Source: a virus (lineage: Duplodnaviria > Heunggongvirae > Uroviricota > Caudoviricetes). Taken from it: a stretch of DNA of 8,088 nucleotides. The notes below the pieces were generated by a model. It did not search any database and was not told the origin of the DNA. It saw only the letters and a program-made list of their open reading frames with translations. A program made the position numbers and the translations under genes. Location: the IMG/VR virus record IMGVR_UViG_2690316345_000016. One strand, written 5' to 3'. Shown one piece after another: positions 1-8,088 of this stretch; position 1 is the first letter of the stretch, and each line of letters begins with the position of its first letter.

Positions 1-102
1 CCGGAGAGTAACGGCATAGCAGAGAGCTTCGTGAAAACGATAAAGCGTGACTACATCAGTGTCATGCCCAAACCAGACGGGTTAACGGCAGCAAGCCAGT
101 AA
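1..102 (+). CDS. IS3-family (IS2 InsD-like) transposase OrfB, C-terminal fragment; 5' part lies outside the window and the end is apparently truncated by an internal deletion
   Basis: Frame-1 translation of 1-99 is [33 protein letters not shown], stop at 100-102. The [19 protein letters not shown] motif is characteristic of IS2 InsD. Confidence 0.65.
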
Positions 103-147
103 TGGGTTAAGTGATAACAGGTGTCTGGAAATATAGGGGCAAATCCA
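1..147 (+). mobile_element. IS2-like (IS3-family) insertion sequence, right-hand end only; the element continues leftward beyond the window
   Basis: Bases ~100-147 (taatgggttaagtgataacaggtgtctggaaatataggggcaaatcca) match the IS2 right terminal inverted repeat as I recall it, ending in GGGGCAAATCCA at 136-147. The upstream coding sequence is an IS2 InsD-type transposase C-terminus. Compared with recalled canonical IS2, about 100 bp just before the terminus appears to be missing; this is from memory, not computed. Confidence 0.7.
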
Positions 148-150
148 GCT

Positions 151-180
151 TTGAACTGGTTAACATAGTGGGATTATAAG
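151..180 (+). promoter_or_regulatory. Candidate sigma70 promoter for the HNH operon, directly abutting the IS2 terminus
   Basis: TTGAAC at 151-156 (5/6 to TTGACA), 18-bp spacer, TATAAG at 175-180 (5/6 to TATAAT); followed by SD AGGAGG at 201-206 and ATG at 211. Confidence 0.3.
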
Positions 181-210
181 CACCGAAGTAGTACTTCAGC
201 AGGAGGCGAT

Positions 211-939
211 ATGAACAGAAAGCAATTCATCCAGTCACACGGAGCTACTTGCAGTAACTGGACGTGGAGTTGGTCATTTGTTAACCATGAAAAGAAGATG
301 GTCATCTTTGGGTCATGGGATGTTGAGAGTGAGCATGAGCGATCTGTAATACTCCGTGAGAAATGGGAATACAACTCAAACAACAAAAAACAACCGGGAT
401 ACACCCAGGCTCTGGAACACATCAGGTTAGTCCATGAAGGCTACGAACTTTACACCTTCAATATGGTTTTCGCAGAACATCCGGATAATCCCGAAATTGC
501 AGTAATCAAAGATTTTGAGCGTAAATTAAACAAGCGATATCTTCGTAAAGAAGGCGTTGTTTGGTATGCAGACTTCTTACCTAATCCATTCCCCGATGAA
601 ATTCCTTCAGGAGAGAGTTTTGTTGAAGGTGCAAAGACTCAAGTAACAGTGAACTACTACGAACGCGATCCAAAGGCCAGACAAGCCTGCATCCAGCATC
701 ACGGTACTACCTGTAAATGCTGTGGCTTCGATTTTGAGAAGGTCTATGGTACACATGGCCGTGGGTTCATTCATGTACATCACATCAAGCCGCTTCATAC
801 GATTGGGGAAAACTATGTAGTAAACCCCGTAACAGATATGATCCCATTATGTCCAAACTGCCATGCAATGGTACATCGTGGAAGCGGTGTACTTCCAATT
901 GCAGACTTGAAAAAGAAAATGACATTATGGAGCGAGTAA
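211..939 (+). CDS. McrA-like HNH endonuclease with a distinct Trp-rich N-terminal domain (candidate type IV / modification-dependent restriction nuclease)
   Basis: 242-aa ORF with strong SD (AGGAGG) before the ATG. The C-terminus CKCCGF...GFIHVHHIKPL...ENYVVNPVTDMIPLCPNCHAMVH is a classic zinc-finger HNH motif (CxxC...HH.xP...N...LCPNCH..H), very close in pattern to E. coli McrA (recalled). The N-terminal ~160 aa (GATCSNWTWSWSFVNHEKKMVIFGSWD...) is aromatic-rich and unassigned. Confidence 0.8.
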   Translation: MNRKQFIQSHGATCSNWTWSWSFVNHEKKMVIFGSWDVESEHERSVILREKWEYNSNNKKQPGYTQALEHIRLVHEGYELYTFNMVFAEHPDNPEIAVIKDFERKLNKRYLRKEGVVWYADFLPNPFPDEIPSGESFVEGAKTQVTVNYYERDPKARQACIQHHGTTCKCCGFDFEKVYGTHGRGFIHVHHIKPLHTIGENYVVNPVTDMIPLCPNCHAMVHRGSGVLPIADLKKKMTLWSE

Positions 940-1731
940 ATGGATTTATCACAATTGAGTAACGTCGAATTGATGCAACTGAATCAGTTGACGCTTGATG
1001 AGTTAGAACGACGAGAGGTTATCAGAACCAGAAACAATCCTATCAGTGAGTACACTGAATGGCTGATTGCGGAAAAGATGCAAATGGTACTGGCTGCACC
1101 TAGTACTAAAGGGTATGACGCTACAACGATTGATGATCGAAAAATTCAGATTAAGTCTCGTAAGAATAATTTAAAAAACCGAACGTTAATTCTTGGAATT
1201 ATCAGAAATTATGATCTGAACCAATTCGATGAACTCATTGCCGTAATATATAACCATGATTTCTCAATTCGTTATGCTATATCCATACCACATGGATTAG
1301 TGAAGGAATATGGTTTTTATAATGAGCACCAGAATGGTTACACTCTAAGAATCAGCAATTTATTACTTAATGATCCACGTGTAACAGATATCATTGAATT
1401 CATTGATCCAGACACTGAACGTTCAAAGGAAGAGATCACGGTGAAGCCAGATTCAAACACTATTCGGGATGTACAGACAATAGGAATGCAGACATTTGTT
1501 GAGTACTATCAATATGTTGAAGGTGGAATGGACACAACTGATCTTGTTGAAAAGATGATAACTGACCATCCAGAGTGGAAGGAAAGTACTGCAAGAACAA
1601 AGGCATCTTCAATGCGAAGAGTATTCAAGAATGGCGACAACATTGAGGTACTAAAAATCATCTATAAGTCGAATCACCCAGCAATAACGCATGAGATTAA
1701 GAGTAAACTGATGACGCTTTGGGATAAATGA
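940..1731 (+). CDS. Hypothetical protein translationally coupled to the HNH gene; N-terminal PD-(D/E)xK / Mrr-like nuclease motif suspected
   Basis: 263-aa ORF; its ATG at 940 immediately follows the HNH stop TAA at 937-939. Residues ~57-72 TKGYDATTIDDRKIQIKSR (nt ~1108-1165) fit a D-x9-QxK arrangement after a Glu-containing helix (EYTEWLIAEKM), resembling PD-(D/E)xK cores. AT-rich codon usage, distinct from the HNH gene. Confidence 0.65.
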   Translation: MDLSQLSNVELMQLNQLTLDELERREVIRTRNNPISEYTEWLIAEKMQMVLAAPSTKGYDATTIDDRKIQIKSRKNNLKNRTLILGIIRNYDLNQFDELIAVIYNHDFSIRYAISIPHGLVKEYGFYNEHQNGYTLRISNLLLNDPRVTDIIEFIDPDTERSKEEITVKPDSNTIRDVQTIGMQTFVEYYQYVEGGMDTTDLVEKMITDHPEWKESTARTKASSMRRVFKNGDNIEVLKIIYKSNHPAITHEIKSKLMTLWDK

Positions 1732-1775
1732 ACAAAGTTTGGGTTATATTTTTGACACAAAAAGATATAATTGTA

Positions 1776-1830
1776 GTACTTCCACCATTCGCATTTGGGT
1801 AGGTTTGTTTGGGCGATTGGTGGAAGTGTA
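1776..1830. repeat. Imperfect inverted repeat (14-bp arms, ~20-nt spacer) between convergent genes
   Basis: Left arm cttccaccattcgc (1779-1792) and right arm gcgattggtggaag (1813-1826) are reverse complements with one central mismatch; extendable by wobble pairs to ~1776/1830. It sits at the switch from AT-rich to ~balanced GC DNA. Confidence 0.5.
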
Positions 1831-2142
1831 TCAAAACGGTAATTCTCCCTGCTCACAAAACCATCCATCTTTATCATGCTGCTTATAGACTGCATTCTCA
1901 CTACTCAGATATTGCAAACCTTCCAGTACTGAACATAGCTGCGTTTCCAGTATGAACACGAAGCAAACACGCTCAATCGTGCCTAACCAGTAAGTACCTT
2001 GCTGGTGCTGGAAGAATACGCGATCCCCATATACAAACTTATCAAGGCTGTATCCCCAATAGCAGACAGTAGCCCACTTGCCTAAATGTTCAAACTGCTG
2101 TGTACCGCTTTTGATTGCCGGATCAAAACCATTCTTGCCCAT
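1831..2142 (-). CDS. Hypothetical aromatic-rich 103-aa protein
   Basis: Minus-strand ORF (MGKNGFDPAIKSGTQQFEHLGKWATVCYWGYSLDKFVYGDRVFFQHQQGTYWLG...). Upstream on the minus strand is GAGGGTG, 7 nt before the ATG. No recognisable family motif; composition differs from its neighbours. Confidence 0.5.
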   Translation of the reverse strand: MGKNGFDPAIKSGTQQFEHLGKWATVCYWGYSLDKFVYGDRVFFQHQQGTYWLGTIERVCFVFILETQLCSVLEGLQYLSSENAVYKQHDKDGWFCEQGELPF

Positions 2143-2322
2143 GTTACACCCTCGCTACCGATACTGTTTATCCATACAGTTTGTCACCACATTTCGCACA
2201 GATCCAGCCATCAAGAGCACTTACCACTAAAAATGGTAGAAATTAAAATATCGATCATTTTAATTTGATCATAAGTTAAAAGTGATTAATTATCAATCAG
2301 TTATGGAAACTGAGAGAGCAAC

Positions 2323-2832
2323 ATGAAACTCGAACATTTGGCAATTCCGATCACTTCATTGAATGGAAAATTACTCGGCGTTGAGCTGGAAACACGTGTA
2401 CTTATAGATGGTTGCCGGGTGTTGGTTGGTATAGGTAAGGAAAGTGAATACATACGTCACGTGGTCTATCAGAACCAGCTAAGAATGATTCAGGGCAAAG
2501 CCGCATGGTTTAAAGAAAAGGGGCTGTTGTGCGTGCTCAGTACTGGCAGGGGTACACGGTATGACGATCTACCATTCATACGGTACATGGCTGCTGAACC
2601 ACTGCTAACCGACGGTTACGACGTAATACGACTAAATAGACGGTTCACTGAAGAACACATCGAAAGGCTGATTTTCCCGGTACTCATCAAGAACATCATG
2701 CAGTACTGCGACAAGGTGATCGTACAAGTCACTGGCAATAACAATCACAGGATTCTACGAGAGTCGGGGATATGGGCAGTACAGGGAGAGTACAGGCCAA
2801 TCCGCTTTGAACAATGCGAACAACTTCTATAG
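2323..2832 (+). CDS. Hypothetical 169-aa protein; tentatively a degenerate, shortened EAL-like (YdiV-like) domain
   Basis: The N-terminus LAIPITSLNGKLLGVELETRV resembles the start of EAL domains (QPIvdL.tG.lvGvEaL.R; compare recalled YdiV FLPIRDNQQVLVGVELITHF). The C-terminus KVIVQVTGNNNHRILRESGIWAVQGEYRPI resembles the EAL tail (vvAEGVEt..q...l...G.d..QGy...P), but the catalytic acidic residues are replaced and the protein is ~70 aa shorter than a full EAL domain. Confidence 0.55.
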   Translation: MKLEHLAIPITSLNGKLLGVELETRVLIDGCRVLVGIGKESEYIRHVVYQNQLRMIQGKAAWFKEKGLLCVLSTGRGTRYDDLPFIRYMAAEPLLTDGYDVIRLNRRFTEEHIERLIFPVLIKNIMQYCDKVIVQVTGNNNHRILRESGIWAVQGEYRPIRFEQCEQLL

Positions 2833-2842
2833 GGAAATAACA

Positions 2843-3166
2843 ATGAAAATACTAATCGTCATGTTGGTAGTACTGCTCACATGCTGCGGCAGCGTACATC
2901 ACTCATTCATGGATAAAGCCTTTGTAGGCACCGTAGATAACAAAGCTACAATAGTACTGTTCGACGCTGGCACACGAAACGGGGTGAAGTACTACCGGCC
3001 TCAGTTTCATAGTGATTGTGGCCGCACCTACAATCCGATTTACCAGGTGGACAATGGCAGTACTATGTGCTTAATACGAGATACACGTATTACTCATTTA
3101 AAATTATACAATATGTATATGGTTAAAGTTATTCCCAATGCAAACGACAGTATCTATGAGAGGTAA
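2843..3166 (+). CDS. Small exported protein or lipoprotein (107 aa)
   Basis: Begins MKILIVMLVVLLTCCGS, a signal peptide with Cys residues after the hydrophobic core (non-canonical lipobox). GGGA lies 9 nt upstream of the ATG at 2843. The ORF track's upstream start at 2807 would overlap the previous gene and place the signal peptide internally, so 2843 is preferred. It starts 10 nt after the stop of the 169-aa gene. Confidence 0.55.
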   Translation: MKILIVMLVVLLTCCGSVHHSFMDKAFVGTVDNKATIVLFDAGTRNGVKYYRPQFHSDCGRTYNPIYQVDNGSTMCLIRDTRITHLKLYNMYMVKVIPNANDSIYER

Positions 3167-3343
3167 GGGGATAAAGACTGTGGTTGTATGTAATTAACAA
3201 TCAATAAAAGAATACACTTAATCCTTCTAATATGGCTCTGACACCTGATGTAACTTTTTAGTTGCAAAGTAAAATTTATGGTCCATAATCGATTTATATT
3301 GCTGGTTGGAGCAGGTTTAAACTAAGATAATTAATGGTGCGAA

Positions 3344-3805
3344 ATGAAAATTACAGAAGAGTTAATTTATAAAACATTCAGTAATACCTTTGAAGGAACA
3401 ATGATATTATTAAAGATTTCAATTCTTAGTACACTAATAACTTTATTCATTCTTATTAATGGTGCAGATCCTGGGGCGATAGAATCCATAAAGGTGGTCT
3501 TTGCTACACTTGCATTGTATGCGATGTCTGTAGGGATTGGCTTAGGTGCAATGTTGCTTTCACCAATTACCTATAAAGTGGCTGATTGTTTCGAACTTAA
3601 AGCAAATAGCCCCTTATGCAAAGTGATTAGTATCGTATATGGGATGGTGTATTTTGCTACAACATATGTAATAGCTACTTATTTGACTTATCTGATTACT
3701 GATAGTTATAGGACAGGAAAAGAATTAGTAGCTGTTTACGTAATTAGTACTGTGACAATATCTTTTATCCAAGCACGTCGTCTCTATAAACTCATTGGTC
3801 AATAA
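3344..3805 (+). CDS. Integral membrane protein, ~4 predicted TM helices (153 aa)
   Basis: Four hydrophobic stretches (approx. residues 20-40, 50-76, 95-118, 127-142) in MKITEELIYK...MILLKISILSTLITLFILING...IKVVFATLALYAMSVGIGLGAMLL... Very AT-rich. Only a weak SD (GGTG). Confidence 0.55.
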   Translation: MKITEELIYKTFSNTFEGTMILLKISILSTLITLFILINGADPGAIESIKVVFATLALYAMSVGIGLGAMLLSPITYKVADCFELKANSPLCKVISIVYGMVYFATTYVIATYLTYLITDSYRTGKELVAVYVISTVTISFIQARRLYKLIGQ

Positions 3806-3834
3806 ACTGGCCGTGGTTATTGATGATTTAGTAA

Positions 3835-3854
3835 AGGCCCACAGAAGCGGGCCT
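3835..3854. terminator. Hairpin between convergent genes (probable bidirectional intrinsic terminator)
   Basis: aggccc (3835-3840), 8-nt loop acagaagc, gggcct (3849-3854); flanked by A/T-rich sequence on both sides, with TTTAC immediately following the stem on the minus-strand transcript. Confidence 0.45.
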
Positions 3855-3871
3855 GTTAATAATATATCAAA

Positions 3872-4231
3872 TTAAAATTCATCTAAAGTACTTCTTTTCT
3901 CGTCTATTACATTAAACTCTAAAAGTCCATCATTAACCTCAAAAGTAACGGTGGTTGAATATGAATCATCAATATCCATATCCTTACACATGTTATAAAT
4001 GAAGTAGCTAATGCTATAATGCAAAACGTAGATATTTTCGTCTAAGTATTCAATATCATCTATAATGAAATAGTCAGTAGATTGTGCTCTTGAATCAATG
4101 AAATCTAAATCAATATCCAAAATCTTTTTTAAAGTTATGTCACTATGATTTTTATCTAAGTAGTCATAGAGAATTTTTTCAGCTTCTTTCCCGTGGGTTG
4201 GAAGTGTTAAATTGAATGGATAGGTAGTCAT
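3872..4231 (-). CDS. Strongly acidic small protein (119 aa), function unknown; candidate DNA-mimic or immunity-type protein
   Basis: Minus-strand ORF MTTYPFNLTLPTHGKEAEK...; by my count 18 Asp + 8 Glu versus 7 Lys + 2 Arg. SD-like AAAGG ~10 nt upstream of the ATG on the minus strand. Extremely AT-rich. Confidence 0.55.
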   Translation of the reverse strand: MTTYPFNLTLPTHGKEAEKILYDYLDKNHSDITLKKILDIDLDFIDSRAQSTDYFIIDDIEYLDENIYVLHYSISYFIYNMCKDMDIDDSYSTTVTFEVNDGLLEFNVIDEKRSTLDEF

Positions 4232-4405
4232 TACATAAACCTTTAGTCAAATAATTAATGGTTAACTTTATAAGTACTAAAATAGCATGATGAATTAAAA
4301 TATTCAATGAAAAGAGAAGGTACTCCCAACACAACTACCAATACGCGAGTTTTCGGCACCGAATGCTTTCATTCGTATGTGACATTTTAGATGTACACAA
4401 AACAT

Positions 4406-6845
<2,440 letters not shown>

Positions 6846-6857
6846 TAAGGATATTAA

Positions 6858-8088
<1,231 letters not shown>

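Follow-up and report, generated by a model that had tools for sequence, protein, structure and literature searches.

Two abutting nuclease genes in the cargo slot of an Escherichia coli prophage: a probable cassette of separately acting, modification-dependent restriction endonucleases

Introduction

Do two nuclease genes that abut within a prophage encode the halves of one defence system, or two enzymes that act separately and are inherited together? This question is raised by positions 211 to 1731 of an 8,088-nt stretch of viral DNA (Caudoviricetes; IMG/VR record IMGVR_UViG_2690316345_000016), which is referred to here, at its full length, as the window. Gene 1 (211-939, + strand; 242 amino acids, aa) encodes an HNH endonuclease composed of a predicted SRA-like N-terminal domain, a linker and a McrA-type HNH domain, and is a candidate Type IV enzyme. 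Gene 2 (940-1731, + strand; 263 aa) encodes an Eco15I-type endonuclease of the BisI family, which by homology would be a Type IIM enzyme dependent on 5-methylcytosine (5mC) or 5-hydroxymethylcytosine (5hmC). A first-pass annotation, made from the sequence alone, had proposed a two-nuclease system of partner proteins. Here, we describe the two genes and their domains, the extent to which they are inherited together and the prophage that carries them, and we arrive at a different answer: 211-1731 is probably a cassette encoding two modification-dependent restriction endonucleases that act separately, and is borne as accessory cargo by a serine-recombinase E. coli prophage, in a variable slot.

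Two coupled genes under purifying selection

The two same-strand open reading frames (ORFs) are indeed present as first annotated, and the stop codon of gene 1 directly abuts the start codon of gene 2 (TAA-ATG, with a gap of 0 nt). The coupling junction, as read from the sequence, spans 929-942 (+ strand) and is composed of GGAG (929-932), the gene 1 stop TAA (937-939) and the gene 2 ATG (940-942). Each gene has its own Shine-Dalgarno sequence: AGGAGG at 201-206, 4 nt 5' of the gene 1 ATG, and the GGAG within the junction, 7 nt 5' of the gene 2 ATG. Both are real genes under strong purifying selection and not chance ORFs, with ratios of nonsynonymous to synonymous divergence (dN/dS) of 0.04-0.11 for gene 1 and 0.10-0.19 for gene 2 overall, and of 0.04-0.05 and 0.10-0.12, respectively, against homologues at 82-84% nucleotide identity (synonymous divergence, dS, 0.7-1.6). 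Gene 2 had been called markedly more AT-rich than gene 1; the difference exists but is modest (GC content 43.1% for gene 1 and 37.1% for gene 2, with 39.1% for the window and 33-46% for neighbouring prophage genes). Identical E. coli proteins are at present annotated as 'HNH endonuclease' (gene 1) and 'hypothetical/DUF6998' (gene 2).

Gene 2: a BisI-family nuclease of the Eco15I type

Residues 1-155 of the gene 2 product (940-1404, + strand) constitute a nuclease domain of the PD-QxK type, which matches the crystallised N-terminal domain of Eco15I (Eco15I_Ntd; PDB 8q5m, E 1.6e-32) as well as NhoI (PDB 8q5n, E 6.9e-19). The protein is 31% identical to full-length Eco15I (sequence taken from the supplement of PMC11347163) over 242 aa, C-terminal domain included (BLASTP, E 2e-41), and it matches the PADLOC model mREase_II (PDLC03212, Type II methyl-directed restriction endonuclease; 3.4e-61) and phrog_24787 (2.1e-39). 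The match to Pfam DUF6998 lies below the cutoff of that family, and a literature search on DUF6998 found no papers. The likeness to PD-(D/E)xK or Mrr-type nucleases that had been noticed at first is therefore well founded, in the form of a BisI-family match, whereas the description of the protein as uncharacterised does not hold, since homologues with biochemistry and structures are available.

The BisI family consists of PD-QxK (Mrr-like) nucleases, which recognise GCNGC when two to four of its cytosines are 5mC or 5hmC, do so without base flipping, and cut inside the site (PMC4926085, PMC11347163). Helix alpha1 contributes a Glu to their active site, which further contains the Asp belonging to a degenerate 'PD' motif as well as the QxK residues, and all mutants of Eco15I_Ntd at these residues are inactive (PMC11347163). 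In gene 2 the corresponding residues are E40 (1057-1059), D60 (1117-1119), Q70 (1147-1149) and K72 (1153-1155). They form the motif D60-x9-Q70-I-K72 with E40 upstream, in columns that are invariant or nearly so among relatives, and E40, (Y)D60 and Q70-I-K72 align with the AD...QIK motif of Eco15I and the WD...QVK motif of NhoI. Seven NhoI residues that contact DNA or the methyl groups (Asn42, Ser65, Ser98, Arg101, Ser137, His139 and Thr144, as listed in PMC11347163) were mapped via the gene 2-NhoI alignment; five of them are identical in gene 2 (N32, S55, R89, H130 and T135), Ser137 is replaced by N128, and Ser98 is taken up further below. Judged by homology, gene 2 is a member of a known, structurally solved family, in its Eco15I-type two-domain form.

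By recognition logic, Dcm methylation (C-5mC-WGG) would be unable to create a G-5mC-NGC site, so that an E. coli host should tolerate gene 2. In one two-domain relative, the 269-aa protein P0146 (41% identity to gene 2), substitutions affect three of the four catalytic residues (E40L, D60N and K72L) and the C-terminal domain is still present; this may be a BisI-like protein that has lost its activity and is kept for another role.

The C-terminal domain of gene 2: an accessory module of many nucleases

The remaining residues of gene 2 (156-263, 108 aa; 1405-1728, + strand) make up an accessory domain with six helices, from residue ~172 onwards, which is homologous to the C-terminal domain of Eco15I (Eco15I_Ctd). 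The BLASTP alignment with full-length Eco15I extends through residues 182-244 of it, and an AlphaFold 2 (AF2) model of this domain alone has the six helices, at a predicted local distance difference test score (pLDDT) of 85 and a predicted template modelling score (pTM) of 0.74. In 2016, Xu et al. described mobile elements that carry 'Eco15I homologs (263 to 294 aa)' in which an additional domain follows at the C-terminus, and remarked that this domain of Eco15I resembles 'some putative HNH endonucleases' (PMC4926085). As of 2024, the role of Eco15I_Ctd 'remains unknown': its truncation leaves modification sensitivity unchanged and no DNA binding was detected (PMC11347163).

Among 1.84 billion cluster representatives, a profile search identified 317 relatives of the domain. 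Many of these stand alone as proteins of ~100 aa; in others the domain is joined to HSDR_N, GIY-YIG-type (MUG113, T5orf172), HNH, DUF559 (Vsr-like), MTES_1575, PvuRts1I-like, PLD-like, HEPN or DUF4145 domains, and in some to methyltransferases; a separate homologue search with the domain alone returned two fragments only. On the evidence of these fusions, the Eco15I_Ctd-type domain is best described as a promiscuous accessory module of nucleases, found with at least eight kinds of nuclease domain. The likeness to putative HNH endonucleases remarked on in 2016 can be understood from this, because the domain occurs fused to HNH. The N-terminal domain of gene 1 and the C-terminal domain of gene 2 were also compared with each other; they have no similarity, and the two genes therefore share no domain.

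Gene 1: an HNH nuclease with a predicted SRA-like reader

The gene 1 product is organised, according to its AF2 model, into a sensor-like domain (residues 1-125; 211-585, + strand), a disordered linker (residues 126-147; 586-651, + strand) and an HNH (beta-beta-alpha-Me) nuclease domain (residues ~148-226; 652-888, + strand). The nuclease domain contains a CxxC...CxxC zinc finger of the form CxxC...HH...CPNCH...H at residues 168-222, in which C168, C171, C214, C217, H188, H190, H191, N216, H218 and H222 are invariant. It matches Pfam HNH (2.4e-6) and the E. coli K-12 enzyme EcoKMcrA (PDB 6ghc, 1.8e-6), in the latter case with chain residues 172-273, the HNH part, opposite gene 1 residues ~133-235. 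The PADLOC model mREase_IV likewise matches the HNH part only.

The N-terminal domain is beta-rich and is the proposed sensor of modified bases. First-pass annotation had put it at ~160 aa with no assignable family; the want of a family match stands, and the size does not, as the folded part comprises ~125 aa followed by the linker, which is variable and gappy in the alignment and has a pLDDT below 50. The tryptophan-rich motifs quoted then (NWTWSWSF, residues 16-23, and FGSWD, residues 33-37) are both present, as are the McrA-type zinc finger and the D60-x9-Q70-I-K72 motif of gene 2. Across the family, the signature is NW(T)WSWSF...FGAWD, and the domain has 18 invariant positions, half of them aromatic (W17, W19, W21, F23, F33, W36, W52, F83 and W118), with a near-invariant D37. 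No Pfam family, SAD_SRA and EVE included, matched this domain in any of 46 members at E <= 1; nothing was found in NCBIfam, PADLOC or PHROGs, a profile search of PDB sequences matched the HNH half only, and Foldseek of the gene 1 model against the PDB gave nothing at E <= 0.001. The best fold matches of the domain, not significant in Foldseek against the PDB, are SRA domains and not NEco, the N-terminal 5mC/5hmC reader of EcoKMcrA. Some likeness of the model to PD-(D/E)XK folds (EcoRV, Hjc and Vsr; Foldseek probability <= 0.2) was considered and rejected as noise. From its modelled fold, the domain is likely to be an SRA-like reader of the PUA superfamily, the best-supported assignment though an unproven one.

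The arrangement of an N-terminal sensor, a linker and an HNH domain at the C-terminus within one polypeptide of ~250-310 aa is the rule for PUA-HNH modification-dependent enzymes (PMC6765204). Alternatively, the N-terminal domain might not read modified bases at all, and its ligand might instead be a phage protein, a DNA structure or a specific sequence without modification, which would make gene 1 a nicking enzyme or an abortive-infection effector. Consistent with this, the domain has no sequence-level link to known sensor families and some of the neighbours of the gene family are of the abortive-infection type (Gabija or OLD). However, the architecture is that of TagI, VcaM4I and EcoKMcrA (PMC6765204), and no methyltransferase or immunity gene, as would be needed by an enzyme active on unmodified DNA, recurs nearby, and we therefore regard such a function as improbable.

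Is gene 1 perhaps an ordinary phage HNH protein, either a homing endonuclease or, like HK97 gp74, a cofactor of the terminase in packaging, leaving gene 2 as the only defensive gene? It does lie in a prophage, ~3.5 kb upstream of the terminase genes, the same HNH gene is found ~1.7 kb upstream of the terminase in a related prophage, and PHROG HNH families match its C-terminal part. These matches are, however, confined to residues ~140-235, and neither the N-terminal domain nor the family was found in any of 50,697 GenBank phage genomes. At least 547 species-representative genomes, drawn from many phyla, encode proteins of this 250-aa architecture, for the most part outside prophages; 128 plasmids do so too, and the 120 best matches listed are, without exception, full-length proteins of ~250 aa from many phyla. 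Members of the family are also present in non-phage islands without a terminase, and related prophages (L092-L094 in our numbering of loci) lack gene 1. In the window, gene 1 is not adjacent to the small terminase gene, genes on both strands lying between them, and the gpA-type large terminase has an endonuclease domain of its own. Taken together, an ordinary phage HNH function is very improbable.

Returning to a modification-dependent enzyme, gene 1 can be described from its sequence as an unlabelled clade of a known enzyme kind and a candidate Type IV restriction endonuclease. No paper characterising this HNH family came up in our literature search, whose scope did not extend to the supplementary material of the PUA-HNH screen, where tested sequences may be listed.

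Inherited together, but separable

Do the two enzymes require each other? Three backgrounds have the pair in the same order: the prophage next to yeaG, an integrase island located at ffs (found in E. coli SBF45 and eight others) and an island of Enterobacter. The genes abut in the window, L001, L090 and L091 and are 2 nt apart in L002 and L003, so that stop and start codons touch or nearly touch in every locus with the two-domain form of gene 2. Their amino-acid divergence also tracks from locus to locus (96/96, 90/87, 90/92 and 73/68%). These observations can be read as support for a cooperative two-nuclease system, in which the C-terminal domain of gene 2 would dock or regulate the HNH protein, or recognition and nicking would fall to one enzyme and completion of the break to the other, full restriction requiring both. 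The fusion of similar domains elsewhere to HNH and many other nuclease domains is a Rosetta-stone-like hint in the same direction, as is the unexplained function of Eco15I_Ctd, which did not bind target DNA in vitro (PMC11347163).

Against this, each family is mostly found without the other. No BisI-like or Ctd-like ORF was found within 5 kb of the HNH gene at any of 80 species-level HNH loci (phmmer and profile search), and half of the viral-contig BisI-like loci (4/8) have no HNH gene. Two-domain BisI-like genes, C-terminal domain included, occur without HNH in L092-L094, and plasmid Eco15I-type genes stand alone between IS1 copies (IS, insertion sequence). The pair is present in 10 of 5,426 complete E. 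coli genomes, as against 18 with an HNH homologue only, and the plasmid hosts of the two families are mostly different (74 Escherichia versus 81 Klebsiella). In Pantoea, the HNH gene is followed by an unrelated ORF and then by a short BisI-like gene without the C-terminal domain. Moreover, Eco15I and the truncated Eco15I_Ntd each cleave alone in vitro (PMC4926085, PMC11347163). The intervening Pantoea-type ORF encodes 191 or 223 aa (L006 7321-7896 and L095 4096-4767, respectively) with a C-terminal hydrophobic helix, and has neither a Pfam match nor similarity to the C-terminal domain of gene 2.

How the partners come apart is seen at loci that have lost one of them. The homology of L009 to the window ends at window position 974, such that an HNH gene at 97-98% identity persists with only the first 35 nt of gene 2 (L009 5730-5764); that of L010 ends at 939, the last position of the gene 1 stop codon; and that of L092 begins at 917, leaving gene 2 with only the last 23 nt of gene 1 (L092 5831-5853). 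Because single-partner loci keep such short scars of the lost partner, recombination occurs right at the gene junction. L011 is listed with L009 and L092 among the loci that retain a scar.

Neighbouring genes do not point to another partner. The HNH family has no recurrent one, the commonest neighbour family accounting for 5 of 150 neighbours, while GajA/OLD, Mrr, reverse transcriptases and integrases recur among the neighbours of the 80 HNH loci. A methyltransferase was neither found among the window ORFs scanned, nor called in the 20.8-kb intact element, nor present in the top 25 neighbour families of those 80 loci. In PADLOC-DB 2.0, the two proteins match single-enzyme models (mREase_IV and mREase_II) and no named multi-gene system matches both.

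The pair is thus a heritable but separable stack and not an obligate system. Of the original proposal, the conserved co-occurrence of the two genes holds in a subset of Enterobacterales mobile elements and fails in most genomes with either gene, a check against named defence systems yields each enzyme singly and never the two as one, and the notion of obligate partners is contradicted. Cooperation between the two nucleases is, in our view, unlikely. Similarly small is the chance that a Ctd-type adaptor couples a 5mC reader and cutter to an SRA-like HNH nuclease, or that the Trp-rich N-terminal domain reads a modification outside the known Type IV range.

A model of two separately acting enzymes

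In the proposed model of separate action, both genes would be co-transcribed and translationally coupled, such that a lysogen makes both proteins. A dimer of the PD-QxK protein encoded by gene 2 would bind G(5mC)NGC-type sites in which two to four cytosines are 5mC or 5hmC, would do so without flipping out bases, and would cut within the site. The gene 1 protein would read a modified base by means of its N-terminal SRA-like beta-barrel with an invariant aromatic pocket, and its McrA-type zinc-finger HNH domain, probably as a dimer, would nick or cleave the DNA nearby. Acting independently in vivo, the two enzymes would protect in an overlapping manner against phages and plasmids whose cytosines are modified, and spare the host DNA, with no need for a methyltransferase partner. 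Enzymes that spare unmodified host DNA fit the absence of a nearby methyltransferase gene.

Several points weigh against this model. NhoI Ser98, a partly conserved residue that reads a purine, corresponds to G86 in gene 2, a Gly that is invariant across its subgroup, and for this reason the recognition sequence of gene 2 may differ from GCNGC. Gene order and tight coupling are kept across three mobile-element backbones (the yeaG prophage, the ffs island and a third island, of the serine-recombinase type), with correlated divergence at dS >1; this persistence exceeds what random stacking would lead one to expect and leaves room for cooperation. At this locus, the cutting activity of both proteins is predicted only. 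Finally, a promoter scan recognised no consensus sigma-70 promoter on the + strand upstream of gene 1, whether in the window or across the 256 bp of native intergenic sequence in an uninterrupted copy (L099), and an IS2 element separates the operon of the window from most of its native upstream sequence; expression of this copy is therefore unproven.

The IS2 element (IS3 family) is represented by its right end at 1-147 (+ strand), which contains the C-terminal end of the transposase orfB and the terminal inverted repeat and gives megablast matches to IS2/IS3-family transposases. It lies 63 bp upstream of the start codon of gene 1, in place of most of the 256-bp region present in L099; what remains of the native 5' leader (148-210, + strand), including the Shine-Dalgarno sequence AGGAGG, is identical to L099 9209-9271. 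IS2 reads toward the operon, and expression of the interrupted copy may depend on read-through from it. A terminator scan found no + strand terminator 3' of gene 2, and Rfam and tRNA scans of the window returned nothing.

The host prophage and its cargo slot

Positions 148-7973 of the window are 99.99% identical to the uninterrupted copies L089 and L099, identity starting only at 148. These copies represent a small E. coli prophage next to yeaG, integrated by a large serine recombinase. In the window, the prophage is flanked by IS2 on one side, and on the other an IS1 element, from 7974, truncates the portal gene (region 7373-8088), which is cut to 201 aa as compared to 500 aa in L099. The terminase genes that first drew attention as neighbours of the operon, along with the IS2 end, are a small terminase gene (4441-5022) and a gpA-type large terminase gene (4937-6845), the latter split into the overlapping ORFs 4937-5461 and 5430-6845. 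This split is common to all near-identical copies (L099-L104), whereas the Pantoea relative L006 has one 638-aa ORF, and it reflects either programmed frameshifting or else a frameshift, or a pseudogene, that has become fixed. With IS2, IS1 and the split terminase gene, the prophage of the window is crippled, and this copy cannot be viable.

Related prophages carry other cargo in the same slot, between the early genes and the terminase: the HNH gene alone with SMODS/SLATT, DUF3800, DUF2971, or a NUMOD4/HNH_3 homing nuclease with a BisI-like gene alone. This region is a variable cargo hotspot of the prophage family. The variation was seen across L098 (E. coli GF3-3), L001, L006 and L092, and the homing-nuclease variant also has a 510-aa ORF of no known family.

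Further genes lie downstream of the operon. A 103-aa ORF on the - strand (1831-2142; phrog_2100, ending in ...QGELPF) converges on gene 2 and has the same position in L090, L092, L095 and L099. Positions 2323-2832 encode a 169-aa protein that resembles only the C-terminal part of an EAL cyclic di-GMP phosphodiesterase (NCBIfam PdeB, 1.9e-6), and L006 encodes a 225-aa counterpart with a full Pfam EAL match; the gene has the appearance of a conserved EAL-like phage gene, perhaps in degenerate form in the window. The region 3150-4400 has a GC content of 28-33% and includes a predicted membrane protein of 153 aa and no family (3344-3805) and a minus-strand ORF of 119 aa (3872-4231; phrog_13663).

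Implications

Current understanding is not overturned by these findings, and gene 2 is a routine addition to a family that is already solved. Should the model of two separate enzymes be correct, the gene 1 family (at least 547 species representatives and 128 plasmids, now labelled 'HNH endonuclease') would be a candidate new Type IV clade with a divergent SRA-like reader, with value both for the study of what keeps out phages and plasmids with modified DNA and as a source of potential epigenetic tools. The Eco15I_Ctd-type domain, as a widespread module on at least eight kinds of nuclease domain, would offer a concrete lead on its role. The locus would also be an example of prophages putting together and shuffling single-gene restriction modules in a cargo hotspot, where recombination scars fall exactly at the gene junction. 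If it is the cooperative reading or the one invoking a new specificity that is true, the pair would represent a new two-component modification-dependent restriction system and provide the Eco15I_Ctd-type domain with a role.

Comparison with known systems

Classical restriction-modification systems have a cognate methyltransferase nearby, which was not found for gene 1 and gene 2. HNH proteins of the HK97 gp74 packaging type are small, adjacent to the terminase and conserved in phages, whereas gene 1 lies 3.5 kb from the small terminase gene and is absent from the GenBank phage records searched. With EcoKMcrA, the McrA protein of the E. coli K-12 e14 prophage, gene 1 shares the McrA-type zinc-finger HNH domain but not the N-terminal NEco reader; for this reason, and because all matches are limited to the HNH part, gene 1 is not a McrA orthologue. 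Closer in organisation are the SRA-HNH enzymes (TagI, ScoA3IV/Sco5333 and TbiR51I) and the EVE-HNH enzymes (VcaM4I and TspA15I), which have the same order of N-terminal sensor, linker and C-terminal HNH domain. The sensor domain of gene 1 differs from theirs in that it is shorter (~125 aa), has no detectable sequence similarity and carries a signature of its own.

Gene 2 has the two-domain layout of Eco15I of E. coli 541-15, a PD-QxK nuclease followed by a C-terminal domain of ~110 aa, and, as compared to the wider BisI family (BisI, NhoI and Bce95I), it keeps the E/D/QxK active site and most of the NhoI contact residues. Its 263 aa are inside the 263-294 aa range reported for Eco15I homologs (PMC4926085). 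At 31% overall identity and with a Gly at the NhoI Ser98 position, it belongs to a distinct subgroup, and in contrast to Eco15I, which is found alone between IS elements, it is translationally coupled to an upstream HNH gene. As in the defence-cargo ('moron') hotspots of temperate phages and in the stacked Type IV systems of defence islands, the cassette sits in a slot that in relatives holds SMODS and SLATT, DUF3800 or DUF2971 genes, and it travels to other islands; what sets it apart from these is that two nuclease classes are combined in one coupled transcription unit and have been co-inherited over a dS > 1.

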